Counted from the first letter of the stretch, positions 30,591 to 45,049 are shown. The stretch is DNA of 64,000 bases from Bacteroidaceae bacterium (GCA_017398805.1 JAFQEZ010000063.1:43472-107471); one strand, 5' to 3'. Numbers and translations: made by a program. Notes: generated by a model not told the origin, from the sequence alone.

Positions 30591-30672
30591 GCGCGTGTGG
30601 CGAAATTGGTAGACGCGCCAGACTTAGGATCTGGTGTTTTGCGACGTGTAGGTTCGAGTCCTATCACGCGCA
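30591..30672 (+). tRNA. tRNA-Leu (anticodon UAG), type II with long variable arm, no encoded CCA
   Basis: Acceptor stem GCGCGTG/CACGCGC. Anticodon arm CCAGA-CTTAGGA-TCTGG. T arm GTAGG-TTCGAGT-CCTAT. The variable arm is 13 nt. Confidence 0.9.
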
Positions 30673-32166
30673 CGATGAGACAAAAGAGGAGAATTCAAAA
30701 GAATTTTCCTCTTTTTTATTTTTGTAATTCACTGATAATCGTGCAATTATAGAAAGCGCCTCATTCTCATCAAAGGTTCGATAATTGTCTTTCTCCTTAT
30801 CCCACAAAATTCCATTAGGGAAAAGCAGATTTTGCAGTTTTTGGCAAGTTTCAAGCGAACCATCACGCCACAAACTGTCTAATTTACAGCACATTGCAAG
30901 TATGTCATCTACCTCGCCATCAAGGTTCGATAAATTTTTTCTGCACTCTGCCAAACCTCGCTCTATGTTATCAAGTTTTTCTTGCAAATCCTTGTTTGTC
31001 ATTTCGTATATCTCCTCATCAATCTCGCCCATGCCAAACCTAACCTTGCACTTCTTCAACTTGCCAATATATTCACTCTTTTGCTTTTTAAGCAATGTTT
31101 CCATGCTTCTAGCCTCATCATCATTGGAAATAATCATTTTTGAGATAATATCCCTCAAAAGCGGTTTAAGGCACTCTGCCACGTTAAAGAAACGCAATAG
31201 GCATTCATACCTCTCATGCAATTTCTTCGCTGATACGTTGGTTTTACAACCACTCTGATTGCATTTATAATAGTCGATGTTCTTCTTCTTGACTGTATAT
31301 GCAGTAAAAGGCGTTTTGTCTTTGGAACACAAGATATGGCGTTTCAAAGGGAAACGAGGAGTTTCCTTTTTGTGTTTGTAAACACCCGTTCTTCCACCCA
31401 ATATATCTTGCACACGCAAGAAATCCTCATAACTTACCAACTTTGGTTGATTACCATCGACCAACCTACCTTGCAACATCTTATGGCGTATTTTACCAGC
31501 ATAGAAAGGATTGGTAAGGATATGATGTAGTTTCTGTTTTCTCATAGTAAGTCCATAATCAGAGAGTTTCTTCAAAATCTCACAGTTTGCATACCCTTGC
31601 AGTTTCCACTTGAACGCCTTGCGTATCAAATGCCCTTTGTCGTTTACTGTAAAATATGTACCCAACGACTTGCCATGTTTATCATATCCCAACGGTTTAG
31701 CGGCACCACAATAGACACCACTTTCAAGGCAATGCTTACGACCTGACACAAATTTGTCAGTACGATTGCCGTTATCCCACTCAGCCAACCCCAACTTGAT
31801 ATGTATCATCATTCTTCCCTCATTAGTTGAACTATCTACGCCAGATGAAACATCAACAATGATAACATTCAGTTGTTTCAACTTTGAAACAATCATTGCT
31901 CCTTGTGCCACATTACGACTAAATCGGTCAATAGCAGGAACAAGTAGATGGGTTATTTTTTTATTTTTCTTTATAGACTCATACATTTCTTTAAGCATGG
32001 GGCCAGGCGTTTTTGCAGACTCATGCTTCCCTCCAAAGTAACCTTTTATAACAAATCCGTTTTGCCTTGCATACAACTCACATTTGGTCTTTTGGTCGCT
32101 TAAAGAAGCGCCATTATCCTCTTGGTGTTTTGTTGAGACTCTTGTCCAAATAACACAATTCTTCAT
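30664..32166 (-). CDS. Large serine recombinase (integrase)
   Basis: The N-terminus CVIWTRVSTKHQEDNGASLSDQ carries the catalytic Ser context. A recombinase domain, Cys-rich region (CSKD..C..SGC) and coiled-coil tail follow. The 3' end runs into the att junction. Confidence 0.85.
   Translation of the reverse strand: MKNCVIWTRVSTKHQEDNGASLSDQKTKCELYARQNGFVIKGYFGGKHESAKTPGPMLKEMYESIKKNKKITHLLVPAIDRFSRNVAQGAMIVSKLKQLNVIIVDVSSGVDSSTNEGRMMIHIKLGLAEWDNGNRTDKFVSGRKHCLESGVYCGAAKPLGYDKHGKSLGTYFTVNDKGHLIRKAFKWKLQGYANCEILKKLSDYGLTMRKQKLHHILTNPFYAGKIRHKMLQGRLVDGNQPKLVSYEDFLRVQDILGGRTGVYKHKKETPRFPLKRHILCSKDKTPFTAYTVKKKNIDYYKCNQSGCKTNVSAKKLHERYECLLRFFNVAECLKPLLRDIISKMIISNDDEARSMETLLKKQKSEYIGKLKKCKVRFGMGEIDEEIYEMTNKDLQEKLDNIERGLAECRKNLSNLDGEVDDILAMCCKLDSLWRDGSLETCQKLQNLLFPNGILWDKEKDNYRTFDENEALSIIARLSVNYKNKKEENSFEFSSFVSSCA
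30670..30690 (+). repeat. attL-like junction: tRNA 3' end GCAC joined to the element left-end sequence GATGAGACAAAAGAGGA
   Basis: GCACGATGAGACAAAAGAG recurs at 41258-41276 and 44105-44123. Confidence 0.8.
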
Positions 32167-32303
32167 AAGTCAATTTCTTTTTCTACAAAATTATTTATCC
32201 CAATTTCTGCCAATGCTGTCAAATATCCAATCAACACACTAGCCTCATCTTTAGTAATGTTTATTTTATTAAAGTATTCTTCATAATCACTGTATTTAAT
32301 CAT
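32163..32303 (-). CDS. Possible 46-aa upstream ORF coupled to the large serine recombinase
   Basis: Hand-translated MIKYSDYEEYFNKINITKDEASVLIGYLTALAEIGINNFVEKEIDL. Its TGA overlaps the recombinase ATG (ATGA). There is no other support. Confidence 0.25.
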   Translation of the reverse strand: MIKYSDYEEYFNKINITKDEASVLIGYLTALAEIGINNFVEKEIDL

Positions 32304-32658
32304 TCACAAAATACATTTTTCCTTGCCACAATACTCTGTGGCTTATTTTTTTGGTGCTTTGTGGCATACCAACAACGAGGAAACGCTGGAGCGTAAAGCA
32401 CCTGCTCGTTGCCATATAGATATTGCGAAAACAGACAGCACTCGCTGTGAAAGGAAATAAATTTCCTCTCGCTCGTTTGTAGCGTCTTTGCCTTTCGTGT
32501 TTGCAATAAACCTAATTCTTTCAAGGGTTGCCACCTTGTATTTTTACAATGTCTTTATTGATTATAACCCACTGTTGGAATATTCTCTTTTGCGCTTTGT
32601 TTCAGTGAGTTGTTTCGAAACATGGCAAACATATATTTTTTATTTTGAAAAAACAAAT

Positions 32659-33291
32659 TTACGCTTGCAATTTGTTAATATTTCTTAATTTTCTTAATGT
32701 ATTGACACTTGTCGATGTTATTGCAGATACATTACGAAGCGATAAACCTTTGCGCAAGAGTTGAATTTCCTTTGCATATTCCACCCTCATTGCTTCCTCG
32801 CTTTTGCGATAACCCTCTTTACGACCAACCTTGCCACCAATCGCTCTATAATGATTGTAACCACTCTCCATTCTGCTTCTTATGAGGCTACGCTCCATAC
32901 TGTTGAACTGTGCAAGAATACCCATTACAAGTTGTGCTATTGGATTGGATTGCCCATTGGGGAGCAGTGTTTCAAGTCCATTTTGGAGAATATATACGCT
33001 GATTTTCTTCGCTGTAAGATTTTCTATTACAGTAAGGAAATCTATTGCACGCCTCGATAAGCGACTGCACTCATAGATTAGAACCTTATCCACGTTGTTG
33101 CTCTCAACGAAAGAAAGCAACTCTGTAAGGGCTTGGCGTTCTGCGACTGTCTTTGCGCCACTAACCTTTTCGCAGAACTCCATCACAACCTCATATTCCA
33201 TCTTACGAGCATACTCACGCAACTCTGCCAACTGTCGCTCATAGTCTTGTCCTTGCGTGCTTACACGAGCGTATATAACAACCTTTGCCAT
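32659..33291 (-). CDS. Small serine recombinase (resolvase/invertase type) with a C-terminal HTH
   Basis: MAKVVIYARVSTQGQDYERQ at the ATG at 33291. Also has ...SRLSRR... and a C-terminal HTH (NVSAITSTSVNTLRKL). Confidence 0.8.
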   Translation of the reverse strand: MAKVVIYARVSTQGQDYERQLAELREYARKMEYEVVMEFCEKVSGAKTVAERQALTELLSFVESNNVDKVLIYECSRLSRRAIDFLTVIENLTAKKISVYILQNGLETLLPNGQSNPIAQLVMGILAQFNSMERSLIRSRMESGYNHYRAIGGKVGRKEGYRKSEEAMRVEYAKEIQLLRKGLSLRNVSAITSTSVNTLRKLRNINKLQA

Positions 33292-33304
33292 ACCCCTACT
33301 ACTA

Positions 33305-33556
33305 TTAAAGAACCTCGATAAGATTTTCAAAGCGAAGTGAACGAAATCCACCCTTTTCACAATCCCAATAGCAGACAGTGTTCACGCTATCTCTTGAAAT
33401 GCCTCTGCCATTGATGTTTGCTTTCATCAAGTTGCTTGCTGTTGTACCCCACGCCTCACGAAGCGTGCCATCTTTCTTCATATATACAAAGTGAGCAACA
33501 CCCATCTGCAACTTTGCTTTGAGTAAGTCAATCATCTGTGCCTTGATTACGCCCAT
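33305..33556 (-). CDS. DUF2693-like (SH3 beta-barrel) small protein
   Basis: 83 aa. The VAHFVYMKKDGTLREAWGT...CYWDCEKGGFRSLRFENL pattern resembles DUF2693 proteins of Bacteroidales mobile elements. Confidence 0.5.
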   Translation of the reverse strand: MGVIKAQMIDLLKAKLQMGVAHFVYMKKDGTLREAWGTTASNLMKANINGRGISRDSVNTVCYWDCEKGGFRSLRFENLIEVL

Positions 33557-33746
33557 TGCCTCGCTGTTTGTTCTACGAGCGATTACGCTTGCTCAACGAC
33601 TTGTAAGATTATTTATTACAACAACTGAATTATTTGCTACTGCTATCATGTCTCTATTGGTTAAGTGGTTAAACATATCTTTGTTTCCTTTTCGCACAGC
33701 AAAGATATGGAATATATTTAATATAATCAAACAAAATGCAATATTT

Positions 33747-33775
33747 TTATGGAATATTTTGATTATATTCCATAA
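33747..33775. promoter_or_regulatory. Operator-like palindrome in the divergent intergenic region
   Basis: TTATGGAATAT-N7-ATATTCCATAA has perfect 11-bp arms. A third ATGGAATAT lies at 33707-33715. Confidence 0.45.
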
Positions 33776-33806
33776 ATAACTACATTTGAAAATTAAAAAG
33801 CATAAA

Positions 33807-34031
33807 ATGGAAGCAAATAAACAAGAACGCACTGTAATACATCTAGAATTAAATGGAGAACATTACTATTTTGGCAGTGTAAAAGCACTTTGCGATAATT
33901 TTAGTAAAGAACAGATTGGTATTGGATACAAAAGTCTTGCAAACTATGGAATAACAGCAGATAAACCATATAGAAACAAATACTGTACTGTTAGAAAAGG
34001 AGTATTGATAACGGCTCCAAAAACTGAATAA
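33807..34031 (+). CDS. Small putative DNA-binding protein; truncated paralog at 41486-41648
   Basis: First ATG at 33807. The C-terminus YRNKYCTVRKGVLITAPKT parallels IYKNKKCTIRKGTLYVKPTT in element B. Confidence 0.4.
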   Translation: MEANKQERTVIHLELNGEHYYFGSVKALCDNFSKEQIGIGYKSLANYGITADKPYRNKYCTVRKGVLITAPKTE

Positions 34032-34088
34032 AATTTAATGTACAAAGTGTAATAAATACACGCAAAATAAACATGAAATAATAAGACT

Positions 34089-36158
34089 ATGAAAGCAAAT
34101 GAAGTGAGATTAACAGATTTCTTATCCAAAACAGATACGCAATTTGTCATCCCTATATATCAACGCAATTATGATTGGAAAAAGAATCATTGCGAACAGC
34201 TCATAAATGATATTTTAGAAGCTGGCAGAAATGAGAAAATACATTTTATAGGAAGTATTGTATATGTTCATGATGGGGTTTATTCAAGTGGTATTAAAGA
34301 GTTAGTTGTTATTGATGGACAGCAAAGAATAACAACTATTACCTTGCTATGTATAGCATTGTACCATTTCTTAAGGGAGAAAAATCCTACAGATATGCAA
34401 GCAAATAAGATTCTAAAACAATTCATTGTTAACGAGTTTGCAGAAGAGAATCAGAGGTTAAAATTAAAAGTTTCAGAAAACAATGACTCTGATTTAAAAG
34501 CGTTAATAAATGATTATCATACAGATGAAGAAACTTATTCTAACATTATAACGAATTACAAATATTTTAAACATCAAATATCAGATGAGAATGTTGATAC
34601 TATTTTGCGAGGTATTAACATGCTAATATTTGTAGAAGTTTCATTAGACAGAATACAAGATAATGCTCAACGCATCTTTGAAAGTATGAATTCAACTGGT
34701 TTGGATTTATCTCAAGCTGATTTAATTCGCAATTATATTCTTATGAACTTGTCTGCAAAAGAGCAGAATGAAATTTATAAAAAATATTGGGAATATATTG
34801 AAATATCAACTCGTATTGGCGCAGACAATAAAATGTCTGAATTTATAAGAGATTATCTTACTTTAAAGACTAAATGCATTACAAAGGAAGAAGAGGTATA
34901 TAAAACATTTAAACAGAAATACCCTCACCAAGACATAAATCAATTAGAGGATGTTTTGTCAGAGATAAAACAACTTGCAAAACCATATTCTAGACTTCTA
35001 TCTCCAACGAAAGAAGAAGACAAAAAAATCCAACAAGAAATCAAAAACATCAATTTACTCAAGATAAACACATCTTATCCTTTCCTTATGAAAGTTTATG
35101 ATGATTATTTGACTGATAAAATTGACAAGGATTGCTTCTATCGAATTTTGAGATTCATACAAACATTTGCCATAAGGCGATTTGTATTAGACCTCCCCAC
35201 AAATTCTTTCAATAAAATCTTTATGGTTTTATACGACAGGATAGACCAATCCAATTATGAAGAATCTATCTATAAATATATAATGTCTTTGGGAGGAAAA
35301 CAAAGAATCCCTAATGATAGTGAAATAAGGGAAACTTTGAAAGATAAAGATATATATTCTGCAAGGGGGAAAAACAAGGAATACCTTTTAGCACAACTTG
35401 AGAATTGGCAAAATAAAGAATTTGTTGAGATTGTTGGAAATGATAACATAACAATAGAACATATATTTCCACAGACACCAAATAATGATTGGAAAATACA
35501 ATTAAACAAAGAAGAATACAATGATTTTGCTTCAACATATCTACATACATTAGGCAATCTAACACTATCAGGGAACAACGGTTCGCTTGGGAATAAGACA
35601 TTTGAGCAAAAGAAGTACATGAATTACGATGGAAAAGAACAAGGATACATATATAGTCGTTTGTGGATGAATTCATATTTGAAAACCATAGACACTTGGA
35701 ATATCAAAAATTATCAAGAGCGTACAAAAATCCTCACAGACAGATTTCTTGAAGTGTGGAAATTGCCAAACATACATATTGAGAAAGATTCTTATGCAGG
35801 TGAAATCAATATATTTGATATAGATGACCCTACTGGAAAAACGATGCAATATGCTAGATTCTTTGGTAAAATTGTAAGGACTACAGACTCTAAATTGGAA
35901 TATGCGGGATTGTTGATTTATGTTGCAAAAAACATATACGAAATTGCTCCTAAAGAATTTATAGAAAATCTTTCAACAGAACTGAATCTTGGTAAAGATT
36001 TACCAAATTGGAGAAGACCTCAAAAAATAGATGAAGAATATAGTATAGAAACAAACCTTTCTGCTAAAGATATATTCAAAAGAGTTCGCTCAATTTTGAA
36101 TACATTTAGATTAGAAGAGGATTTGTATATCTGCTTTAAAGATGATGATGTAATTTAA
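34089..36158 (+). CDS. GmrSD-family (DUF262 + DUF1524) modification-dependent Type IV restriction endonuclease
   Basis: FVIPIYQRNYDW and VIDGQQRITT are DUF262/ParB-like motifs. ITIEHIFPQ...LHTLGNLTLSGNNGSLGNKTF is the DUF1524 His-Me finger. Confidence 0.85.
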   Translation: MKANEVRLTDFLSKTDTQFVIPIYQRNYDWKKNHCEQLINDILEAGRNEKIHFIGSIVYVHDGVYSSGIKELVVIDGQQRITTITLLCIALYHFLREKNPTDMQANKILKQFIVNEFAEENQRLKLKVSENNDSDLKALINDYHTDEETYSNIITNYKYFKHQISDENVDTILRGINMLIFVEVSLDRIQDNAQRIFESMNSTGLDLSQADLIRNYILMNLSAKEQNEIYKKYWEYIEISTRIGADNKMSEFIRDYLTLKTKCITKEEEVYKTFKQKYPHQDINQLEDVLSEIKQLAKPYSRLLSPTKEEDKKIQQEIKNINLLKINTSYPFLMKVYDDYLTDKIDKDCFYRILRFIQTFAIRRFVLDLPTNSFNKIFMVLYDRIDQSNYEESIYKYIMSLGGKQRIPNDSEIRETLKDKDIYSARGKNKEYLLAQLENWQNKEFVEIVGNDNITIEHIFPQTPNNDWKIQLNKEEYNDFASTYLHTLGNLTLSGNNGSLGNKTFEQKKYMNYDGKEQGYIYSRLWMNSYLKTIDTWNIKNYQERTKILTDRFLEVWKLPNIHIEKDSYAGEINIFDIDDPTGKTMQYARFFGKIVRTTDSKLEYAGLLIYVAKNIYEIAPKEFIENLSTELNLGKDLPNWRRPQKIDEEYSIETNLSAKDIFKRVRSILNTFRLEEDLYICFKDDDVI

Positions 36159-36174
36159 CTTTTATTTTGTCCAT

Positions 36175-36213
36175 AAATTGATTGCCACCGGCTTCGCCGA
36201 TGGCAATCAATTT
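36175..36213. terminator. Bidirectional hairpin between convergent genes; duplicated at 42676-42710
   Basis: AAATTGATTGCCACCGGC-ttc-GCCGATGGCAATCAATTT forms an 18-bp stem with one mismatch. Confidence 0.7.
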
Positions 36214-36223
36214 ATATAAAAAT

Positions 36224-37219
36224 CTATTTTATTTCATTATCAAATAAGAATAGAGGATAATCAATTTTGTAGTCAATAGAACCATTATCACGCAGTATTG
36301 TGAGTATCTTGCCCATTGCATTTTCGCCAATCAAGGTGTAGTTGCATTGGGCAAGTATTGTCTGTTCACATATATCCACAATATCGTTCATAGACTGCAA
36401 CTGTGCTTTGAGTTTATCATCAAAAGATTTCTGTTTAGAGGCACTACGAGGTTTTTTAAGCGAGGCAGTCTTTGCCAAAGCGTCTTTCTCAAACGAACGA
36501 ATATAACGCCCTGTAGAGGTTCTCACTGCCCTTACAAGGTCTTTTTTCTGCAAGTCTTGACAACCCCAACGATGAACGCTGTTTGTTGAGTTTTGCATGG
36601 TAGTATCTTCAACGATGATTTTTCCTTTTGTCTTTGCAAGCAACTTTTGAAAACCCTTATTTTGAGCATACTTCAAGTTTACAATATATTTCATTACCTC
36701 TACATCAAAATGGTTGTCATGCCAATTAGGGTGATGGAATTTCTTGTATTTTTCACCATTGACAAATATTTTCTTGCAATACATAGAATTGGGATATTCC
36801 ATAATCTCACGCTGTAAATCGGGATAACCCGAAAATCGCAAGGCAATAAACAAATGTTCGCTTGTCTTGAATTTATATCCACAGCACTCGACTGGGTACG
36901 CTGTGCTCATATTAGAAAATGCACCAAACTCACCATTCAATTTGCCAAAGGTTACAATATCATTTGACTTGTAATATTCAGTTCTGCCAAATACGATTTC
37001 ATAAGGATTGTATATGCTCTCTATCTCATTGGGTTTAGTATATAAATCCCTTATTGGGAGATTAAGGGCACGCCCCATAGTTTCGACAATCTTTTGACTT
37101 GCGTGTTCTCCTTTTAATAATGAATAGCAATATTCACGAGTAACACCTATCATTTGAGCAAACTCACGAACTGATATGCCTCTTTGGTTTATTATCTCTT
37201 TTACTCTTAATTCTGCCAT
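36224..37219 (-). CDS. HTH (XRE-like) fused to a NADAR (YbiA/DUF1768-like) domain protein
   Basis: The N-terminus is KEIINQRGISVREFAQMIGVTREYCYSLLKG. The central region GAFSNMSTAYPVECCGYKFKTSEHLFIALRF...NLKYAQNKGFQKLLAKTKGKIIVEDT...WGC follows the NADAR pattern. Confidence 0.6.
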   Translation of the reverse strand: MAELRVKEIINQRGISVREFAQMIGVTREYCYSLLKGEHASQKIVETMGRALNLPIRDLYTKPNEIESIYNPYEIVFGRTEYYKSNDIVTFGKLNGEFGAFSNMSTAYPVECCGYKFKTSEHLFIALRFSGYPDLQREIMEYPNSMYCKKIFVNGEKYKKFHHPNWHDNHFDVEVMKYIVNLKYAQNKGFQKLLAKTKGKIIVEDTTMQNSTNSVHRWGCQDLQKKDLVRAVRTSTGRYIRSFEKDALAKTASLKKPRSASKQKSFDDKLKAQLQSMNDIVDICEQTILAQCNYTLIGENAMGKILTILRDNGSIDYKIDYPLFLFDNEIK

Positions 37220-37297
37220 GAGAAATTGATTTTGACAAATGTAATATTATTTATTACAATATTGATAAATTGTCGATGTATTTGTATTAAAATAAAA

Positions 37298-37337
37298 ATG
37301 TATCAATATAACCTTAAAATTAGTCGTATTGATACAT
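37298..37337. promoter_or_regulatory. 11-bp perfect inverted repeat in the AT-rich region between the Rep_trans-like and NADAR genes
   Basis: ATGTATCAATA-N18-TATTGATACAT. Further TATCAATA/TATTGATA copies lie near 37258 and 37411. Confidence 0.45.
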
Positions 37338-37466
37338 TCTTTTTGTATTATTCTAACATAAAATATTAAACTGCATTTCATACATAGGTTTAATATAGAT
37401 TATCCTCTATTATATCAATAAATTAGAGTAATAATACATGTATTCATAGGGTGGTTTACTAATACC

Positions 37467-38351
37467 CTACGCTACAATATCAAGGACATCGAGGGTCTGT
37501 TTACCCTTGACTGTTTGGAAGCGTAGCACTCTGTTTGAAAAGTCAAGAAACAAACGCCAAAGGAAATCTTCGTTGCAGAACAGCATTGGATTGTATTCTA
37601 TACCCAAGTGTTGGAAATATTCTCGCAAGGTATCGCCATTGACACGAACCTCTAAACGAAAAAGATAGTTGGGGTTGCCATTGGCTTCTGCGATGTAGTG
37701 TTTGCCACTGTTGCTTTCGATTTCTCGTTTCTTGTTGTAGGCAGAGAGGCGTAAATCGCCATTCTTCTGCTGAACGATGAGGCTGTATTCCTTAATTCTA
37801 CGACAAGAACCTACACCAATGTAGAGTATATCTTCAAGGAGTTTATCCCTATCTGTTACCTTTGTGCCATTGACTATGGGGATAAGTGCTTCATCACGAA
37901 TGGCACGAATTAAGCGTTTGGATAGGTTGCGAGTGTCATCGAAAGCGAGGTCAAGGCGTGTAAGGTTGTGGAATTTCAATCCCAACATTCCCTCAATGTA
38001 ATCGAGGTAAACAAGGCGATTGTGGGTGTTATAGTTGTAGTTGAGGTATAGTTGCTTGTTGTCTATCTCAATCCATACGAAACCACTCATTTCGCCCTCT
38101 TTGTCTGCTTTCAATCCCCAACGCAATGTGCCAAAGCATTGCATATCGTACTCACTGTTGGGGTTGTTGCTTGTTCGTTCAAGATAGATGATTTTGTAGA
38201 TGTTATCGTAATATTTGCCCTCTGTCCTTTCAAGGCGAAAATCCCAATGTGGGAGTTCATAGACTTCGAGGGGTGTTTCCATTAGTTGATATAATGGAGA
38301 GTTCTCATAAAGTGTGTAGCATAGTTTTACTTTGTCAGCACTGATTTTCAT
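37467..38351 (-). CDS. Rep_trans-like rolling-circle replication initiator or MobT-type relaxase
   Basis: LTRLDLAFDD and RLSAYNKKREIE resemble the Rep_trans motifs (R.D.A.D and YdK..E). The start is taken at MKISADKV (38351). Confidence 0.5.
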   Translation of the reverse strand: MKISADKVKLCYTLYENSPLYQLMETPLEVYELPHWDFRLERTEGKYYDNIYKIIYLERTSNNPNSEYDMQCFGTLRWGLKADKEGEMSGFVWIEIDNKQLYLNYNYNTHNRLVYLDYIEGMLGLKFHNLTRLDLAFDDTRNLSKRLIRAIRDEALIPIVNGTKVTDRDKLLEDILYIGVGSCRRIKEYSLIVQQKNGDLRLSAYNKKREIESNSGKHYIAEANGNPNYLFRLEVRVNGDTLREYFQHLGIEYNPMLFCNEDFLWRLFLDFSNRVLRFQTVKGKQTLDVLDIVA

Positions 38352-38532
38352 TGTTAATACTGTTTTTATTCTCATTATTTCCATCATTGGGCTTATTGGG
38401 GATTGTACTCCAATATGCCCTCATGCCATCGCTGATGGCTTGTTTGTGGCTGTCGCTTAACGTGCGATTTTTCAACCCTTGACTGATACGCTGTTTGGTA
38501 TCTGCATTTAATTCTCTAAATTGTCTTTTCAT
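38335..38532 (-). CDS. Small basic protein with NUMOD3-like repeats
   Basis: ADTKQRISQGLKNRTLSDSHKQAISDGMRAYW. It overlaps the Rep-like start by 17 nt. Confidence 0.3.
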   Translation of the reverse strand: MKRQFRELNADTKQRISQGLKNRTLSDSHKQAISDGMRAYWSTIPNKPNDGNNENKNSINNENQC

Positions 38533-38744
38533 AAGCAATACTGTTTATATATAAATATTTCACAAACGAGCGAGATATAAAGCTTGCTTTAATATTTCAA
38601 AGCGAGTGCAGTAAATATTCATCGTTTACGATAAATAGTAGCATAAGTAGAAAAAGAGTAAATAGTAAGTAACTTTTTTGAAAAATATTTTTTGTACAAA
38701 AAACGAAAAACAGTTTTTACCTATACTACTAAAATGGTTTTGTG

Positions 38745-38860
38745 ATAAGCGATAGAGGTTACATAGATAAAAAGCACCCACAGAGGGGTGCTGAATGTGT
38801 TTTGCTATTTGATACCATTACCAACCTTGTCAAAAGTCACCATATCACAAACATTTCGAG
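38745..38860 (-). repeat. Backbone junction: minus-strand terminator hairpin plus 3' remnant of the 92-95-aa end gene
   Basis: AGCACCC-acagag-GGGTGCT (38773-38792) is followed on the minus strand by a T-run. The remnant encodes ...CDMVTFDKVGNGIK*. Nts 38745-38831 are near-identical to 42781-42864. Confidence 0.7.
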
Positions 38861-38976
38861 ATGTTGTTTTGTTTAAATTTGAGAGTTTTCCTCAAAACCA
38901 CTTGCAAAATAGGATTTTGCATACTATTTTTGAAAAGTTTTTGAGATTTATTAGCAACAATCTAACAATCAATCAT

Positions 38977-40245
38977 ATGTTACTAGAATTTTCTTGTGCA
39001 AATTTTAGGTCTATTCATAAAGTATGCACATTATCAATGGTCGCTCAAAAAATTACAGATGAGCCCAAAAACAATATCGCTTATGTAAACGATAAACTAA
39101 ACATTTTGAAGACTGCTGCAATTTATGGAGCAAACTCTAGTGGAAAATCGAATGTGCTTAATGCATTTGCATCAATGGTTTGGCATATTATATATTCTGT
39201 AAAATTAAATGATGGAGATGAACTACGCTATGAGCCGTTCAAATTATCTTCCGCTGGTAAAGAGGCTACATATTATGAAGCAAAGTTTATATTAAATGGT
39301 CAAACATATCGTTATGGTTTTGAACATGATGACAAAACAATTATTAGTGAATGGCTTTATTCATCTTCTATTGGTAGTAAAAAAGAGCAAATTTTGTTTC
39401 TTCGCAATGAAGATGGTATTGGAGTTAATGAAAAAAGTTTTCCAGAAGGTGTTGATAAGGAAGAAAGCACTGTTGAAAACCGACTTTTCTTATCCTTATG
39501 TGCACAATTAAATGGTAAATGTTCAAAACAAATAATAGATAAATTCAAGACATTCAATGTTATATCAGGTATAAACTCCAATCGTTATGCAGGTTATTCA
39601 AAAGCAATGTTGCATAAACAATTAGATGGATATGGAGATGCTATTGATTTTTTTAAAACACTTCAATTAGGATTTGAATCAATTCAAACGAAAGAACGGG
39701 AAGTTGAAATTCCTGAAGATTTTCCAGAAAGAATAAAAGAAGAACTTACGAACAAACTAAAAGGCAAAAAAGATATTGAGTTAAGAAGCATTCATAATGT
39801 GTATGATGAAGATGGAAGAATCGTTGGTACTACTTTGTTTGATTTTAATAGAGCAGAATCTGAAGGAACAAAAAAAATAATTCAATTATCAGGTCCGATA
39901 TTTGATACTTTAAATAGGGGACTTGTACTCTGTGTAGATGAAATTGATGTAAAGATGCACCCACTTATATCGCAGTTCATTATTAACTTATTTAATGATC
40001 CCGAAAAGAATACAAAAAATGCCCAACTTATATTTACAACACACGACACTCATTTGCTCTCATCTAAAATGTTAAGAAGAGACCAAATTTGGTTTACGGA
40101 AAAGGATGCCACAGAGCAAACTGACCTATACAACATGATGGACATTGAACTCCCTGATGGAAGCAAGCCTCGTCCTGATGCAAATTATAAGCGCAACTAC
40201 ATCGCTGGTAGATATGGTGCTATTCCATATATAATAAATGAATGA
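38977..40245 (+). CDS. AAA/ABC-type ATPase (AbiLi/RloA-like)
   Basis: The ATG at 38977 gives MLLEFSCANFRSI. Walker A is GANSSGKSN, Walker B is LCVDEIDVKMHP, and QLIFTTHDTHLL follows. Confidence 0.8.
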   Translation: MLLEFSCANFRSIHKVCTLSMVAQKITDEPKNNIAYVNDKLNILKTAAIYGANSSGKSNVLNAFASMVWHIIYSVKLNDGDELRYEPFKLSSAGKEATYYEAKFILNGQTYRYGFEHDDKTIISEWLYSSSIGSKKEQILFLRNEDGIGVNEKSFPEGVDKEESTVENRLFLSLCAQLNGKCSKQIIDKFKTFNVISGINSNRYAGYSKAMLHKQLDGYGDAIDFFKTLQLGFESIQTKEREVEIPEDFPERIKEELTNKLKGKKDIELRSIHNVYDEDGRIVGTTLFDFNRAESEGTKKIIQLSGPIFDTLNRGLVLCVDEIDVKMHPLISQFIINLFNDPEKNTKNAQLIFTTHDTHLLSSKMLRRDQIWFTEKDATEQTDLYNMMDIELPDGSKPRPDANYKRNYIAGRYGAIPYIINE

Positions 40246-40967
40246 TTATGGCTAGAAAAATAAAAATAGACAATGCTATCTTAAAGCGCTTTGAGCAAAA
40301 AACAAGAAAGCAAAAGGCTAGTAAGAAAATTTCTTGTCGAATTCTTATTGTTTGCGAAGGCGAAAAAACCGAGCCTAATTACTTTAAAAAATTCAAATTG
40401 ATAAGCAATAACAGCTTTACTTATGAAGTCCATTGTGAAGGCTGTGGCGAGGGAACAATGAAGGTTGTTAATACAGCTATTCACTTAGCAAAAAAAACAG
40501 AACTTTCGTCACAGCCTTATGATAGCGTTTGGGCTGTTTTTGACAAAGATAATTTTGCTGATTTCAATGCAGCTATTGAAAAAGCAGAGAACAACAATAT
40601 CAATGTTGCATGGAGTAATGAAGCTTTTGAATTATGGTATTTATACCATTTCCATAATCGTACAACACGAATGAGTAGAAATGACTATAAAAAAGCAATT
40701 TCTGATGCCGTAAACGCCACTGGTAAATGGCCTAAGAAGCAACCATATGAATACAAAAAAGAAGATGAAAATAATTACAACATCATGAACACTTATGGCA
40801 ATATAAGGAATGCTATAAAGTGGGCAAAACAACAACATCAGACATTTGCTGACAAAAATTACGCAAACCAAAACCCATGCACTACAGTATATAAACTTGC
40901 ACTACAGTTATTGAATGAAGATAAAGATTTGATTGATGCTGTAATGAATAAGATAAACTCCAACTAA
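40242..40967 (+). CDS. RloB-like (AbiLii-like, Toprim-related) protein
   Basis: RILIVCEGEKTEPNYFK and AWSNEAFELWYLYHF are RloB signatures. The start overlaps the ATPase stop (ATGA). Confidence 0.8.
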   Translation: MIMARKIKIDNAILKRFEQKTRKQKASKKISCRILIVCEGEKTEPNYFKKFKLISNNSFTYEVHCEGCGEGTMKVVNTAIHLAKKTELSSQPYDSVWAVFDKDNFADFNAAIEKAENNNINVAWSNEAFELWYLYHFHNRTTRMSRNDYKKAISDAVNATGKWPKKQPYEYKKEDENNYNIMNTYGNIRNAIKWAKQQHQTFADKNYANQNPCTTVYKLALQLLNEDKDLIDAVMNKINSN

Positions 40968-41251
40968 CAATTAAGCATATCGGGTTTATCAACATCACAA
41001 ACTCTCTCAAAAGTTACCATATCGTAACCCTCTGCTCTCAAATAATGAACGAAATCCACGACTTTTAGAAAGTCTCGTTTAAAGTTGGCTGTGCCGACAA
41101 TTTCTTGCCACGGCATAGATGAAACAAGTTTCTCTCTGCCCGTTTGGCTTAACGAAATGTTGGCTTCGCCTTCAATTTCTCGCCATGGCAAAGTGCAAGC
41201 AAGCTCGCCTTTGCTCATTTGGCTTAACGAAATTGTTCGATAATTTGTCAC
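40964..41251 (-). CDS. Uncertain 95-aa ORF (GTG start) covering two 75-nt repeat units plus a conserved C-terminal segment
   Basis: Paralog of 43820-44098. Only the C-terminal part (ANFKRDFLKVVDFVHYLRAEGYDMVTF) is conserved in all copies and remnants. The N-terminal part may be non-coding repeat. Confidence 0.35.
   Translation of the reverse strand: MTNYRTISLSQMSKGELACTLPWREIEGEANISLSQTGREKLVSSMPWQEIVGTANFKRDFLKVVDFVHYLRAEGYDMVTFERVCDVDKPDMLNC
41084..41233. repeat. Two tandem 75-nt units (type A then type B), each with an internal imperfect hairpin
   Basis: The units begin GTTGGCT and end TTTGGCTTAACGAAA. The hairpins lie at 41112-41140 and 41188-41214. Confidence 0.8.
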
Positions 41252-41278
41252 AAATTTGCACGATGAGACAAAAGAGGA
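41245..41278 (+). repeat. attP-like junction between elements A and B
   Basis: TTGTCACA-aatttGCACga-TGAGACAA is an imperfect dyad. It equals the right-end 16-mer plus the left-end GATGAGACAAAAGAG. Confidence 0.75.
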
Positions 41279-41309
41279 ATTCTCAAAAAAAGAGAGTTCC
41301 TCTTTTTTT

Positions 41310-41492
41310 GAGAATCGACAATACTTGCAGCAATAGGTCGCAGGATGCGTGGCGTAGTCACGCCCTGCGGGTTGCGAAAAGCGAGTGTTGTCAATTTTAC
41401 TATCAGAATCGACAATGCCGACAGCGGTTGGTCAAACGAAGTACGGGCGAAGCTCGTACCGTTTGGGCCGCGATAAGGAGGCGTTGTCAATT
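41310..41492 (+). repeat. Two tandem ~95-nt modules: AGAATCGACAAT box, bulged hairpin, GTTGTCAATT box
   Basis: Boxes lie at 41311/41405 and 41387/41483. Hairpins lie at 41339-41369 and 41433-41465. Confidence 0.7.
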
Positions 41493-41648
41493 AAAAAAGC
41501 AGGTATTTCCCAAGCGGCATTAAACAACTATTTCAGCAAGTTGGGAGAGAATGATGAACCCATATATAAAAACAAAAAGTGTACCATAAGAAAAGGTACA
41601 CTCTATGTTAAACCCACAACAAGGGGGCGTAAGAAACAAGGGGAATAA
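41486..41648 (+). pseudogene. Probable 5'-truncated paralog of the small DNA-binding gene 33807-34031
   Basis: Only the C-terminal half is homologous, and there is no ATG near the start of homology (TTG at 41486). Confidence 0.3.
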
Positions 41649-41806
41649 GATTGATAAAATTTATAATTTGCTTTATCAAAATTAGTAACTTTGCTAACAA
41701 ATGCGAATAGTGTTATAAAATAGACTTATAACACCTAAAAACTCTACCAAAGTGGAGATTTTGCAGAAATAATGACTTATTCATTCGGTATAAATCTAAA
41801 ACATAT

Positions 41807-41814
41807 TATATTTG
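41807..41814 (+). promoter_or_regulatory. Candidate -7 box TATATTTG upstream of the TM/zinc-ribbon gene
   Basis: Matches TAnnTTTG, about 290 nt upstream of the ATG at 42105. Confidence 0.35.
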
Positions 41815-42104
41815 CAGAAACATAACAAAAAACACATGCCTATGAAGCATTGACAAATTAAAGACATATAAATAAAAAGCGTTAGCTTGTATTCTTGTTC
41901 TTGAAAATCGCCAAATTTTAAAGAGCACCAAGGGTAAAAGTTAATGCTCACGTCATTCTATGGCGTGGGCTTTTACTCGTATATGGTGCACGGTGTTTGG
42001 CGATACCTCAAGAACATAGACGAAGTTTTAGTCCACGTTTTTTATTTGTCTAAATTGGGGGATTTTGGACAATTACAACAATTTAATTTTAAAAAAATAA
42101 GTTT

Positions 42105-42641
42105 ATGGAAAATTTTGATTTTACTTGGGTAGCATGCGGTATAATATGGGCATTAATCGCAGTATCAGGCACTTGGATTGCAGCTCAAGTTATGGATAAT
42201 TTTACAACCAAGAAAAATAACATCATAATTATACTGTCAATCTTGTCTATAATAGAAATAGTTCTATTTATAAAATTGCTCGATTATATGGGACCTGAAT
42301 ATGGTGGAGGTTATAGTAAATTCAGTTTCGGGAACAAATTTCATTTAGGTTATTTAGCTAGTATGGTTTTACAAGGAGTTTTTGGTTACATCTTTGCAAG
42401 AAATACAAGTGACATCTGCCCGCATTGTGGAACTTGGAACGAGATTAACGGAATTGCCGAGGTTGATAGTCGTGAATATTCTAAATGGGAAACTCATAGC
42501 AACAACATAAGGGATAAACACGGAAATAAAGTCGGGTCTTATGATAGTAGGCATTTACATAATTACAACGAAAAAGAGTTTTTGGTTGAATGTAAAAAAT
42601 GTGGAACGCAATTTTATGTAAAAAGAACATATGAAGCCTAA
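42105..42641 (+). CDS. Membrane protein (about 3 TM helices) with a C-terminal CxxC...CxxC zinc-ribbon
   Basis: 178 aa. The hydrophobic segments are WVACGIIWALIAVSGTWIAAQV, IIIILSILSIIEIVLFIKLL and LGYLASMVLQGVFGYIFA, followed by CPHCG...CKKCG. Confidence 0.6.
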   Translation: MENFDFTWVACGIIWALIAVSGTWIAAQVMDNFTTKKNNIIIILSILSIIEIVLFIKLLDYMGPEYGGGYSKFSFGNKFHLGYLASMVLQGVFGYIFARNTSDICPHCGTWNEINGIAEVDSREYSKWETHSNNIRDKHGNKVGSYDSRHLHNYNEKEFLVECKKCGTQFYVKRTYEA

Positions 42642-42675
42642 TCAAAATCCATTAATAACTGATTAAACTTTATAC

Positions 42676-42864
42676 AATGATTGCCACCGGCTTCGCCGAT
42701 GGCAATCATTTAATATAAAAATCTACTTTATTTCATTATCAAATAAGAATAAGGGATAATCAATTTTGTAGTCAACGAATATAAGGATAGGGGTTACATA
42801 GATAAACAGCACCCACAGAGGGTGCTGGTACTGTTTTAGGATTTGATACCATTACCAACCTTGT
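42676..42864. repeat. Backbone blocks shared with element A, fused by deletion of the NADAR-Rep module
   Basis: Nts 42676-42775 match 36176-36276 (terminator plus the last ~50 nt of the NADAR gene). Nts 42781-42864 match 38745-38831. Confidence 0.8.
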
Positions 42865-42949
42865 AAGAATATTTATTTAGAAATATTTTAAATTACGTTA
42901 AAAAATAGATTTTGTGGCAATACAAATTGTTTTGTATAATATAATGCAT

Positions 42950-42957
42950 TATATTTG
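42950..42957 (+). promoter_or_regulatory. Candidate -7 box TATATTTG, with TTTG at 42931-42934
   Basis: Matches the Bacteroidetes promoter consensus immediately upstream of the structured leader. Confidence 0.45.
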
Positions 42958-42964
42958 CAGTAAC

Positions 42965-43056
42965 GATTAGGCTCACGGCAAAGCGTATCCGATAGCATCC
43001 AATCAGTTGCTAATCTCGATAGTGGATACGCCTACCCTTGAGCATTTTTTATTTTA
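42965..43056 (+). ncRNA. Structured ~90-nt leader or small RNA ending in a terminator-like T-run, 12 nt before the NYN gene ATG
   Basis: There are three nested stems: GCTCA/TGAGC (42971-75/43039-43), GCGTATCC/GGATACGC (42983-90/43024-31) and TAGCA/TGCTA (42993-97/43008-12). ATTTTTTATTTT follows. Confidence 0.4.
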
Positions 43057-43068
43057 TTACTTATTACC

Positions 43069-43764
43069 ATGAAAACAAATTCCTTTCCTCCAGTAAAAAT
43101 TGCAGTGTTAATTGATGGTGGTTTCTTTATAAAGCGTTTTAATGCTTTATATAATAAAGATAGAAAAATGTCTGGTAAAGATGTCGCAGAGTGCTTATAT
43201 ACTTTCGCACATAGTCATGTCGGTAATGAAAATACGTTATATAGGATTTTTTATTATGACTGCCTACCGCTGGATAAAAAAATGCATAACCCTATAACAA
43301 AAAAAGCTATTGATTTTTCAAAAAGTGAAGAGTACAAGTTTAGGGTTGAGTTATTTGAAACTCTAAAGATGAAACGTAAAGTCGCTTTGAGACTTGGCAA
43401 TTTAAAAGATAATGGAAAATGGTGCATACATAGTAATAAAGTTAAAGAATTATTATCTGGAAAAATAAAAGTTGAAGACTTAAAAGAAAATGATGTATAT
43501 CTTGAAATACGCCAGAAAGGCATTGACATGAAAATTGGTGTTGATATATCTTCAATCGCATTAAAAAGATTTGTCGACAGAATTATATTAATATCAGGAG
43601 ACGCGGATTTTGTACCTGCGGCAAAACTAGCAAGAAGGGAAGGCGTGGACTTCATTCTTGACCCTATGGGAGCAAATGTAGAACCTAGTTTATTTGAACA
43701 TATAGACGGTTTAGAAAACAAAAATATTCGAATTAATAGAAAGAACAAACCAAAAAAGAAATAA
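43069..43764 (+). CDS. NYN-domain (LabA/PIN-like) putative ribonuclease
   Basis: VKIAVLIDGGFF...RIFYYDC...QKGIDMKIGVDISS...IILISGDADFVPAAKLARREGVDFILDPM follows the NYN pattern. Confidence 0.8.
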   Translation: MKTNSFPPVKIAVLIDGGFFIKRFNALYNKDRKMSGKDVAECLYTFAHSHVGNENTLYRIFYYDCLPLDKKMHNPITKKAIDFSKSEEYKFRVELFETLKMKRKVALRLGNLKDNGKWCIHSNKVKELLSGKIKVEDLKENDVYLEIRQKGIDMKIGVDISSIALKRFVDRIILISGDADFVPAAKLARREGVDFILDPMGANVEPSLFEHIDGLENKNIRINRKNKPKKK

Positions 43765-43819
43765 ACGTTTTTCATTTCCTTTATTCTGTTTCATATCTAT
43801 TTTAAATCGAATAACACTT

Positions 43820-44098
43820 TTATTGTTTATTGACAGCATTGCTACCAACCTTGTCAAAAGTTACCATATCGTAACCCTCTGCTCTCAAATAATGAACAAA
43901 ATCCACGACTTTAAGAAAGTCTCGTTTAAAGTTGGCTTCGCCTTCAATTTCTCGCCATGGCAAAGTGCAAGCAAGCTCGCCTTTGCTCATTTGGCTTAAC
44001 GAAAAGTTGGCTTCGCCGACAATTTCTCGCCACGGCATAGATGAAACAAGTTTCTCTCTGCCCGTTTGGCTTGACGAAATTGTTCGATAATCTGTCAC
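43820..44098 (-). CDS. Uncertain 92-aa ORF (GTG start), paralog of 40964-41251
   Basis: It has the same C-terminal segment. The N-terminal part is the two 75-nt units in the opposite order. Confidence 0.35.
   Translation of the reverse strand: MTDYRTISSSQTGREKLVSSMPWREIVGEANFSLSQMSKGELACTLPWREIEGEANFKRDFLKVVDFVHYLRAEGYDMVTFDKVGSNAVNKQ
43931..44080. repeat. Two tandem 75-nt units (type B then type A)
   Basis: Near-identical to the 41084-41233 units, but the order is swapped. Confidence 0.8.
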
Positions 44099-44123
44099 AA
44101 ATTTGCACGATGAGACAAAAGAG
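44092..44123 (+). repeat. attP-like junction between elements B and C
   Basis: CTGTCACAAATTTGCACGATGAGACAAAAGAG. Confidence 0.75.
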
Positions 44124-44565
44124 CAGAGTTTTCCGCTCTTTTTTTATGCAAACTCCTCCGCTTTTCATAGAAAAGGTGTCACGCAGTGACGGAGGAGTTC
44201 CTTAAGCCCTGTGGTTGCGGTCAGCAAGCATATCGCTATATTTACACCGACAATTTAGAATCTATGGAATACAAATATCCTTTTGGAGAAATAGTTAAAC
44301 CGTTAGTACAAAAAGACAGAACAGCAAAGCAGGTATTTGTCCTTGGTGTATATGCCAGTGCTGTGCATGCAAAATGGAAAAAGGGGAATGAAATTGTATG
44401 TCAGGCATTGGCAGTTACAAGTGAACCAAGAATTTTTTGGGATGGCAACCCTGATGAAGCCAAGGAAATTATCAGTAAAATCCATATTCCAGATGAGTTT
44501 GGGACTTTAGAGCCATCAGGGAGTCATTTAAATGGGCCTTCAGCAAAAGTGTCACAAATTTGCAC
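44109..44565. mobile_element. Element C: 0.46-kb remnant retaining both element ends
   Basis: The left end is GATGAGACAAAAGAG plus a hairpin (44117-44142). The right end is TGTCACAAATTTGCAC (44550-44565). Confidence 0.55.
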
Positions 44566-44611
44566 TACCCCAACTGCGCTTTTGAAAAAAAATCAAGAAT
44601 ATTTTGATTAA
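44186..44611 (+). CDS. Hypothetical ORF, probably a gene fragment running across the element C right end
   Basis: GTG start. Homology-free by eye. The 16-mer right end lies inside codons ...AKVSQICTT... Confidence 0.25.
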   Translation: MTEEFLKPCGCGQQAYRYIYTDNLESMEYKYPFGEIVKPLVQKDRTAKQVFVLGVYASAVHAKWKKGNEIVCQALAVTSEPRIFWDGNPDEAKEIISKIHIPDEFGTLEPSGSHLNGPSAKVSQICTTPTALLKKNQEYFD

Positions 44612-44624
44612 TTATAAAAAGTAT

Positions 44625-44632
44625 TACCTTTG
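44625..44632 (+). promoter_or_regulatory. Candidate promoter (-7 TACCTTTG, -33 TTTG at 44603-44606) far upstream of rtcB
   Basis: Good match to TTTG-N18-TAnnTTTG. Confidence 0.5.
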
Positions 44633-44639
44633 CAGCCGA

Positions 44640-45049
44640 AAATTAACGAATTCAAATAACAAACATGACAGCAAACTGTACTAAAGCTAATGAACAGAGG
44701 TATAGTAACTGAAAGGTGAGCGTGTCGGATTTCAGCTCATCATTTCAGTAAAAGAAGATGTTGAAATCCGGAAAAACAGAACGAGTAAGCAGACTCACCA
44801 GAATCATGTAATAGAAAAGAATGAGTAGAACGCAACAGATTCCCCGACTACAGCAGAATGGCTGAATGCCGTCGGGTCCCTGTCATCGACTTCCTTCAAG
44901 AAGCACAACAATCCATGCCACACCGAGCAGAAGGTAAAGGTGTACGTATCAGAGGCATGTGAAAGAGAAAATCACTATTTTTACAAACACGACAAGAAGT
45001 GCTGCATAACAGATGCGGCATAAGAGTTGTCATAAACACATATAAGACA
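44640..45049 (+). other. ~400-nt non-coding leader upstream of rtcB with several strong hairpins
   Basis: GGTGAG/CTCACC (44715-20/44794-99) encloses CGGATTTCA/TGAAATCCG (44726-34/44762-70). CCCGAC/GTCGGG lies at 44843-48/44871-76. There is no ORF longer than 15 codons with an ATG. Confidence 0.4.

Follow-up and report, generated by a model that had tools for sequence, protein, structure and literature searches.

Tandem units at the 3′ end of tRNA-Leu(UAG) in a Bacteroidaceae genome: a probable array of small serine-recombinase islands

The islands found at the 3′ end of ssrA in Dehalococcoides (DsiB/DsiA) are tandem units at a stable-RNA gene, with an integration module lying beside attL on the reverse strand (PMC3146451). 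Their large serine recombinase (LSR), of ~500–540 amino acids (aa), is encoded by an open reading frame (ORF) that always runs over attL and the RNA gene, with no stop codon inside the element, and it is accompanied by a second serine recombinase of ~200 aa; units devoid of an integrase were read as mobilizable in cis. The same study, which cites the accretion–mobilization concept, raised the question of an integrase that is complete only on the circle (PMC3146451). This organization recurs in a 64,000-nt stretch of DNA from a Bacteroidaceae bacterium (GCA_017398805.1), hereafter called the window, where three units named A, B and C follow one another at the 3′ end of a tRNA-Leu(UAG) gene. The differences concern the target, which is tRNA-Leu(UAG) with only GCAC repeated instead of ssrA with a 20-bp direct repeat; the host, a member of the Bacteroidales; and the cargo, which is predicted anti-phage defence instead of dehalogenases. 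RecF, ParB and Mom are absent, WYL_2 and a 46-aa ORF (orf46) being present in their place, and a gene fragment at the right end is here shown to be under purifying selection.

Other described systems share part of this layout. Staphylococcal cassette chromosomes (SCC and SCCmec, with the recombinases CcrAB and CcrC) are inserted by large serine recombinases at the 3′ end of one conserved gene; they form composite and tandem arrays that include recombinase-less pseudo-SCC units, and the Ccr enzymes have relaxed site pairing. Arrays with recombinase-less units at a single site are thus common to both systems, but the target is here tRNA-Leu and not rlmH, the second recombinase is small (~210 aa) and not a second large one, the units are much smaller (0.5–11 kb) with a shared core of 4 bp, and the LSR is not a Ccr orthologue. 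Streptococcal integrative and conjugative elements (ICEs) accrete cis-mobilizable elements (CIMEs), which are non-autonomous units that keep only the att ends and are moved with an autonomous neighbour. Non-autonomous units with att ends are likewise stacked here beside an autonomous element, but the CIME/ICE systems rely on a tyrosine recombinase and long identical att cores, and conjugation genes are missing from the present locus. In the integration-dependent switches of mycobacteriophages, attP lies in a coding sequence, and the C-termini of the integrated and free forms differ. The position of attP inside a coding sequence is shared, but the gene is here that of the serine integrase itself and not the repressor of a phage with a tyrosine integrase. 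Phage-type serine integrases (phiC31, Bxb1, A118/LI and SPbeta) resemble the LSR in their domain order and in a 5-bp shift of a motif between attB and attP; however, they act strictly on attP × attB and need a directionality factor for reversal, whereas the arrays described here imply the use of a tRNA|P′ site. In the case of the LI integrase, the distance from the centre to the outer (zinc-ribbon) motif is 5 bp shorter in attB than in attP (PMC3783163). Small serine recombinases were recently linked to defence loci in general (PMC13552941). Literature searches found no published description of this Bacteroidales island family, which is apparently undescribed.

Attachment sites and the proposed accretion of units

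The 15-nt left-end motif GATGAGACAAAAGAG occurs in the window as exact copies at 30674, 41262 and 44109, further similar matches appearing only at three mismatches. Exact copies of the 16-nt right-end motif TGTCACAAATTTGCAC are found at 41246, 44093 and 44550, with no fourth copy in the window when up to three mismatches are allowed. The four junctions read ...CACGCGCAC|GATGAGAC for the first, ...AAATTTGCAC|GATGAGAC for the second and third, which are identical, and ...AAATTTGCAC|TACCCCAAC for the last, in which the distal copy of TGTCACAAATTTGCAC (44550) is followed by TACCCCAACTGCGC; GCAC is the sole sequence common to all four. Within it, A30672 is the discriminator base and C30673 lies outside the mature acceptor end. 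A 15-mer and a 16-mer, each present in three exact copies that adjoin one another and the tRNA, cannot have been placed in this way by chance in 64 kb. The end of the tRNA gene, the six motif copies and the junction series sharing only GCAC had all been described in a preceding sequence-only reading, and are found exactly so. The imperfect dyad it noticed at the element–element junction, TTGTCACA-N11-TGAGACAA, is present as well, with its centre on the G of GCAC. As to the claim that each element brings its own terminator, the left-end hairpin and T-run were scored as terminator-like in A (30682–30715) and in B (41278–41316, called on the minus strand), while the hairpin of C was seen by eye only.

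The DNA delimited by these motifs (30674–44565) has a GC content of 29–39%, versus ~45–51% in the flanks. A 280-nt module with 85% identity is common to the right ends of A and B, the resemblance of the right end of C being limited to its last 16 nt. It is extremely improbable that the motifs are ordinary dispersed repeats or the tRNA's own terminators, with no mobile DNA involved. Left ends would indeed act as terminator-like hairpins after the tRNA, but the motifs occur nowhere else in the window and they bound low-GC DNA. In a survey of 77 species genomes, moreover, left-end types stand directly after the ...GCAC of the tRNA, and right ends lie downstream, at junctions or at a host flank. 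This supports the earlier view of the repeats as element ends.

The region is probably, and with good confidence, an array of three small LSR islands at the extreme 3′ end of tRNA-Leu(UAG). That three related units follow one another at this place had been proposed before, and series of the attL/attP-like/attR type were also found in other genomes. The attachment sites themselves are informative. In the tRNA half, GTTCGA-GTCCTATCACGC-GCAC, a spacing of 12 nt separates the hexamer from GCAC; in the right end of A, GTTCGA-TAATTTGTCACAAATTT-GCAC, the spacing is 17 nt, as it is in B, which has C for the fifth T. GTTCGA is thus 5 bp nearer to the core in the tRNA than in the right ends of A and B, a comparison that applies to the left halves only; no matching outer motif is visible in P′ and B′. 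Left-end types A, B and C agree over their first 15 nt only, and host flanks are wholly different between hosts.

A mechanism can be proposed in which the LSR would cut within GCAC and ‘host’ and ‘element’ sites would be read from their left halves, according to the position of GTTCGA (12 or 17 nt from GCAC). The right half would be largely interchangeable, since different hosts have unrelated flanks and the outer P′ is not the same from one type to another. The role of attB would then fall to the hybrid tRNA|P′ and that of attP to any junction of a right end with a left end. Integration would regenerate a usable target, tRNA|P′, beside the tRNA; new units would be stacked in the tRNA-proximal position, and older distal units would decay, as suggested by the intact A, the non-autonomous B and the stump C. 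Acting between the tRNA site and any internal junction, the same reaction would release a circle of one or more units, which would give integrase-less units a route of movement in cis or in trans. As far as the sequences go, the arrays argue for relaxed site selectivity.

Several points weigh against this mechanism and, more generally, against the array as a product of accretion. The serine integrases that have been studied in detail do not pair attP with attL (PMC3783163), so that accretion at tRNA|P′ requires a relaxed selectivity. The original attB is gone after the first insertion, and later arrivals need either the tRNA|P′ hybrid or composite transfer. The earlier proposal of repeated integration into one attB by a serine integrase is to be amended on this point: the serine integrase and the stacked units stand, but attB does not survive the first event. 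With the dyad centred on G, the nearest shared dinucleotide would be the palindromic GC, which is unusual for such enzymes. Most of the family members seen are decayed remnants, and the pattern could be largely old and vertically inherited. The search for an empty site of this species, with the tRNA joined straight to the flank, had been suggested as a check and gave none: a scan of JGI metagenome contigs for GCACTACCCCAACTGCGCTTTTG returned 0 matches, and all contigs with an identical S9 peptidase or RtcB flank carry the island. Finally, neither a circle nor an excised form was seen in Logan contigs (31-mer) from runs that contain the locus, in which a circle junction is indistinguishable from an array junction, the nearest bases that discriminate A from B being ~35 nt apart across the junction and beyond the reach of a 31-mer.

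The integration module, its relatives and evidence for their mobility

As had been predicted, only element A carries recombinases, none being found in B or C in domain searches of the proteins encoded in the window. The 500-aa protein is a large serine recombinase, in agreement with its first description. It contains the Pfam domains Resolvase (E 6e-21, residues 5–149) and Recombinase (E 3e-11), with an R9-V10-S11-T12 motif that is invariant among 34 relatives, some of which also contain PF13408. An AF2 model, built on a 34-sequence alignment (mean pLDDT 79), predicts a catalytic domain followed by a long helix E, then a recombinase domain and a zinc-ribbon region into which a coiled coil is inserted; in this model, long helices (residues 331–448) lie between beta strands and residues 483–500 are predicted to be disordered. 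Foldseek searches with the model gave full-length matches to the SPbeta, phiC31, Bxb1 and LI integrases (E 1e-17 to 1e-8), with an identity of only 12–19% in the structural alignments. A sequence search of the PDB retrieved catalytic domains only, including that of TP901-1, and the fold search was needed for the full length. The best named NCBIfam match is CcrB with 70.7 bits, far under its cut-off of 900; CcrC scores 25 bits, and the LSR is not an orthologue of CcrA, CcrB or CcrC. Its stop codon (30664–30666) falls within the tRNA gene.

The orf46 that overlaps the LSR start is a candidate directionality factor, as are WYL_2 and the ORF at the right end (tail ORF, see below). For the small recombinase, the best named family is the Mpi invertase, with a score below its cut-off. 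This protein is conserved in four relatives (L011, L083, L084 and L086, where L followed by a number designates a locus in another genome or contig), and the end of L073 retains a C-terminal fragment of it. The LSR, orf46, small recombinase and WYL_2 are intact and 87–99% conserved in intact relatives as far as the sequence reaches, and all four are seen in L011 and L084. As a side observation, the LSR gene contains a motif, TCATCAAAGGTTCGATAATTGTC, that is similar to the outer P arm (TCATAAAAGTTCGATAATCTGTC in repeat-free right ends), in the same orientation and ~100 nt from the crossover; L075 shows a deletion endpoint exactly at this motif, perhaps an accessory binding site, perhaps a relic.

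The distribution of the units was surveyed by scanning one genome per species for the last 23 nt of the tRNA. The 77 loci obtained belong nearly all to gut Bacteroidaceae and their relatives, from ruminants and other animals, and none contains the flanks of the window. Typing of the sequence after GCAC gave 23 A-type, 16 B-type and 6 C-type loci, with several more showing variant ends or a sister LSR lineage; truly empty sites display unrelated sequences after GCAC. In all, about 50 of the 77 genomes have one of these three left-end types immediately behind GCAC. Since A-, B- and C-type ends are all found directly after GCAC, each unit type of the window exists alone beside the tRNA elsewhere. 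Arrays with right-end|left-end junctions were found in five loci (L011, L040, L056, L075 and L080). More than 500 LSR homologues were retrieved, most of them exactly 500 aa long and ending in ...CA*, whereas homologues of 511–566 aa go on as ...CARRDSNPHASRH..., which corresponds to the antisense tRNA; therefore, the 3′ end of the integrase gene lies against the tRNA in the whole family, and the A-type left end encodes the C-terminus of the LSR. Altogether, the island family is large and tied to the 3′ end of tRNA-Leu(UAG), and units with and without the module have the same ends and are stacked head-to-tail. A scan for the junction sequence gave no match in IMG/VR, so that the array units are not phage-like contigs, and two short matching contigs in the JGI data. 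In two genome loci (L025 and L031), a sister LSR lineage (62% identity at the C-terminus) uses the same tRNA end with another P′ arm, GCAC|AAGTTTACTT..., and some sites counted as ‘empty/other’ are thus occupied by relatives.

The two smaller units find their counterparts in this survey. B, previously considered non-autonomous, encodes no recombinase according to domain searches and is one of a class of integrase-less units that is widespread (16 species out of 77): none of the B-type loci yielded an LSR, and integrase-like ORFs were absent by eye in the six loci with ORFs listed. The single ORF of C extends past the right junction. L057 is 96% identical to C over 44109–44550 and continues with a full 281-aa gene of the uracil-DNA glycosylase (UDG) superfamily, then with a DUF4160/DUF2442 pair. 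This full-length gene at the place where C stops bears out the earlier suggestion of a decay product: C is a truncated remnant.

Evidence for mobility comes from pairs of loci. The LSR of L011 is 99% identical to that of the window at the protein level and lies beside the same tRNA, with unrelated flanks on both sides (Peptidase_S41, topoisomerase IV and glycyl-tRNA synthetase upstream; GGCTAAGAGG... downstream). In L011, a 7.4-kb LSR unit is tRNA-proximal and is followed by a 2.8-kb integrase-less unit with an A-type left end. L045 has the flanks of L011 (98.7–99.2% identity) but a single 1.29-kb B-type unit, which shows that the content of the site varies within a species. On the other hand, among the 23 A-type species loci, of which 17 have at least 1 kb downstream of the tRNA, a full LSR is present in only three (L073, L084 and L086); the others retain C-terminal fragments of the LSR, or the P′ arm and hairpin alone, and many breakpoints look random. 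This decay would be expected if the units were fossils, that is, ancient insertions whose resident remnants have since undergone homologous recombination, gene conversion and deletion, the integrase being inactive today. Such a view also accounts for the occupation of nearly all loci of one synteny group and for variants of the same species that differ at a non-att site (L104 and L105). It is nonetheless very unlikely, given LSRs that are 99% identical in two unrelated chromosomal contexts, a four-gene module that is intact and conserved, and a site content that differs within one species. We infer that the elements may be currently active.

The same loci bear on another possibility, which is compatible with a stacked array of LSR islands: A and B, or all three units, would have arrived as one composite circle, cut out of a donor between its tRNA site and a distal junction and integrated once. 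In both the window and L011, an intact LSR unit is tRNA-proximal and an integrase-less unit distal; the LSR frame stays open when the right end of B is joined to the left end of A; and the tail ORF of B is under purifying selection although B has no integrase, which is sensible if this tail completes the integrase of A. However, the partners of the near-identical A core differ, L011 having a 2.8-kb unit whose left end is of A-type where the window has B and C; a lone B-type unit occupies the L011 site in L045; and B- and C-type units stand alone beside the tRNA in many species, indicating that units also change independently. A single composite transfer is accordingly considered rather unlikely.

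Two apparent rearrangements were considered and rejected. A ‘skip’ joint from 30678 to 41270, with TA between, was not retained as an excision of A, for it represents a variant B-type end at the tRNA in another strain. L001 and L093, which could pass for a shorter A with another right flank, are a probable assembly chimera via a ~1.1-kb repeat, since depth doubles over 37.7–38.9 kb in three samples and the same sample holds the arrangement of the window. A second copy of this ~1.1-kb stretch (37700–38830) is present elsewhere in the community or the genome, the branch at 38830 leading to DUF4476, Polysacc_synt and RuvB. Lastly, L104 and L105 (positions 1–80), which come from other samples of this species and have the RtcB flank of the window, show other DNA upstream of TCAGCAAAAGTGTCACAAATTTGCAC|TACCCC, ending in the cassette-boundary motif described below; the distal part of the array is thus polymorphic within the species via a non-att event.

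The integrase gene across attL and the tail ORF

A circular joint of position 41261 with 30674 carries the LSR frame on into the 95-aa tail ORF of A, and the frame is likewise open into the right end of B. Among the nine right ends that reach the P arm, the tail frame is open to the very end of the element in eight, the ninth (L045) having a stop codon just after the P arm. Insertions of a 25- or 26-codon unit number 0, 1 or 2 per tail copy. In the conserved part, (K/R)DFLKVVDFVHYLRAEGYDMVTF, the variable columns number 3, 5 and 14 at codon positions 1, 2 and 3, respectively, and codon differences are synonymous in 260 cases and non-synonymous in 64. Since variation is mainly at third codon positions, the tail ORF is under purifying selection. 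Three protein homologues (P0171, P0156 and P0173) come from contig-end fragments in which the C-terminus of the LSR is fused in frame to the tail. The tail is thus a genuine coding sequence, joinable to the integrase.

This ORF could alternatively be a small stand-alone gene, for instance that of a directionality factor or a regulator, and not an extension of the integrase. All 137 tail homologues are short (52–164 aa), gene callers place starts at internal Met codons, and L045 keeps the conserved part despite the stop codon after its P arm. BLASTP showed no similarity between the tail and the C-terminus of the LSR; for this reason the idea of the tail as a protein duplicate of the last LSR helix was dropped, the resemblance at the level of DNA motifs being kept. 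Other features contradict a stand-alone gene: no conserved start codon or promoter is found, and the first Met leaves only ~33 aa in repeat-free copies; the frame is open to the element end in eight of nine right ends, across 0, 1 or 2 repeats; and there are the in-frame fusions in contigs. On balance, a separate gene is considered somewhat improbable.

An extension of the integrase would have functional consequences, which are put forward as a tentative and rather doubtful proposal. Integration would split the integrase gene, and the conserved tail of 45–97 aa gained across any attP-type junction, on a circle or in a unit placed behind another, would come from the right end of the adjoining unit and be a topology sensor that tunes activity, direction or stability. 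Hitchhiking units would keep a tail to complete the integrase of their carrier. Combined with interchangeable right half-sites, this would make a serine-integrase system that is both reversible and accretive without a separate directionality factor.

Behind the YRT codons lie in-frame insertions of 75–78-nt repeats (25–26 codons), each enclosing a variable hairpin (41078–41232 and 43928–44079, coding on the minus strand). They occur in 0–3 copies in tail ORFs and also inside the LSR gene of other family members (P0237, P0232 and P0192), and are reminiscent of the in-frame palindromic elements of Rickettsia.

Cargo, cassette site and structured repeats

The features of the locus are listed in Table 1, with numbering from the first nucleotide of the window.

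Table 1. Features of the tRNA-Leu(UAG) locus, grouped by unit
Feature	Position	Strand	Remarks
tRNA-Leu(UAG)	30591..30673	+	ARAGORN, sole tRNA in window; Rfam agrees
tRNA 3′ half GGTTCGAGTCCTATCACGC-GCAC (B half-site)	within 30591..30673	+	GCAC at 30670-30673
Element A, autonomous unit	30674..41261		10.6 kb; integration module left, defence cargo (predicted) right
P′ arm of A (GATGAGACAAAAGAG) and terminator-like hairpin	30674..30715	+	minus strand encodes disordered last 17 LSR residues
LSR, 500 aa	30664..32166	-	ORF crosses attL
P-arm-like motif TCATCAAAGGTTCGATAATTGTC	30766..30789	+	within LSR gene; encodes invariant YRT strand
orf46, 46 aa	32163..32303	-	overlaps LSR start; conserved in all intact relatives
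Small serine recombinase, 210-233 aa	32659..33360	-	resolvase/invertase type; Resolvase domain E 2e-33
WYL_2 small protein	33305..33556	-	part of conserved integration module
GmrSD-type type IV restriction enzyme	34089..36158	+	cargo
HTH-NADAR protein	36224..37219	-	cargo
294-306-aa protein	37467..38387	-	98% conserved in L011
Conserved module and relic of tail-ORF end	38631..38846		module ends in cassette boundary TTTGATACCATTACCAACCTTGT (38812-38834)
AbiLi/AbiLii (AAA_21 and RloB) cassette	38847..41010	+	at boundary site
Tail ORF of A, 95 aa	40964..41251	-	two 26-codon repeats; in frame with LSR across attP-type junction
P arm of A, GTTCGATAATTTGTCACAAATTT-GCAC	41235..41261	+	
Element B, integrase-less B-type unit	41262..44108		2.85 kb
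Two tandem long-hairpin units	41313..41490	+	41313-41394, 41407-41490; mark B-type left ends
178-aa protein	42105..42641	+	B cargo
NYN-nuclease cassette	42870..43842	+	flanked by ACCAACCTTGT (42855, 43844)
Tail ORF of B, 92 aa	43820..44098	-	
Element C	44109..44565		0.46 kb; C-type left end and first half of UDG-like gene, joined to last 16 nt of right end
Host B′ flank TACCCCAACTGCGCTTTTG...	44566..44600	+	no relation to B′ flanks of other hosts

The cargo is predicted to be anti-phage defence, PADLOC matches being GmrSD-like (E 2e-135), AbiLi (E 2e-91), AbiLii (E 9e-30) and a weak one to NYN. Its insertion point is constant, within the 3′ end of the tail ORF; the left boundary there is always ...TTTGATACCATTACCAACCTTGT| and the right boundary of the cassette reads ...GAGGTCATCACRAACTTTCTTG|AAAGTYACC. 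Boundary sites are found in the window at 38812–38846, 41000–41027, 42846–42868 and 43841–43870, and also in L001, L011, L041, L056, L057, L075 and L104. The same cassette, DUF4160 plus DUF2442-HTH (helix-turn-helix), has an identical left junction in A-, B- and C-type units; the boundary is also taken by AbiLi/AbiLii and NYN in the window and by a Gp49/HTH pair in L075. This suggests either site-specific exchange of cassettes, with the small serine recombinase as a candidate enzyme, or recombination in conserved flanks. The small recombinase was considered for this role, but its action would be indistinguishable from homologous recombination in the conserved flanks.

Three further structures were observed in or near the array. 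First, a near-identical palindrome with 27-nt arms (93% identity over 104 nt) is located 3′ of the GmrSD gene in A (36166–36222) and 3′ of the 178-aa gene in B (42671–42721); as a bidirectional terminator module common to both units, it further indicates that segments are exchanged between A and B. Secondly, B-type left ends contain 2–5 tandem units of ~96 nt, each with a long hairpin of ~84 nt (L018, L019, L021, L041, L044, L045 and others). The two units of the window have z-scores of -6.6 and -5.4 on the plus strand, and compensatory double changes affect 10 of the 24 base pairs among 25 distinct units; Rfam contains no family for the hairpin units or the right-end repeats. The hairpin region has by far the highest depth in three metatranscriptome assemblies, and one RNA contig ties the hairpins to the 3′ end of the tRNA. 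These hairpin units could represent a structured RNA, or else a signal in single-stranded DNA, that belongs to the non-autonomous units. Thirdly, downstream of the array, a leader of ~430 nt (44620–45049) separates a Bacteroidetes-type promoter (TACCTTTGCAG, ~44627) from the RtcB start (45050) and may be a non-coding RNA tied to this RNA-repair gene.

The fixed site of cassette swapping and the covarying hairpin repeats are additional features of the family that can be tested. The apparent reuse of hybrid sites bears on how selectivity and direction are set in integrases used for genome engineering. The purifying selection on the tail ORF, together with the in-frame junction contigs, provides to our knowledge the first sequence-level support for the idea, formulated for Dehalococcoides, of an integrase that would be complete only when excised. 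For the gut Bacteroidales, the family would consist of compact serine-integrase islands that shuttle predicted anti-phage defence genes among these bacteria, and that are found in most species sharing this tRNA end.

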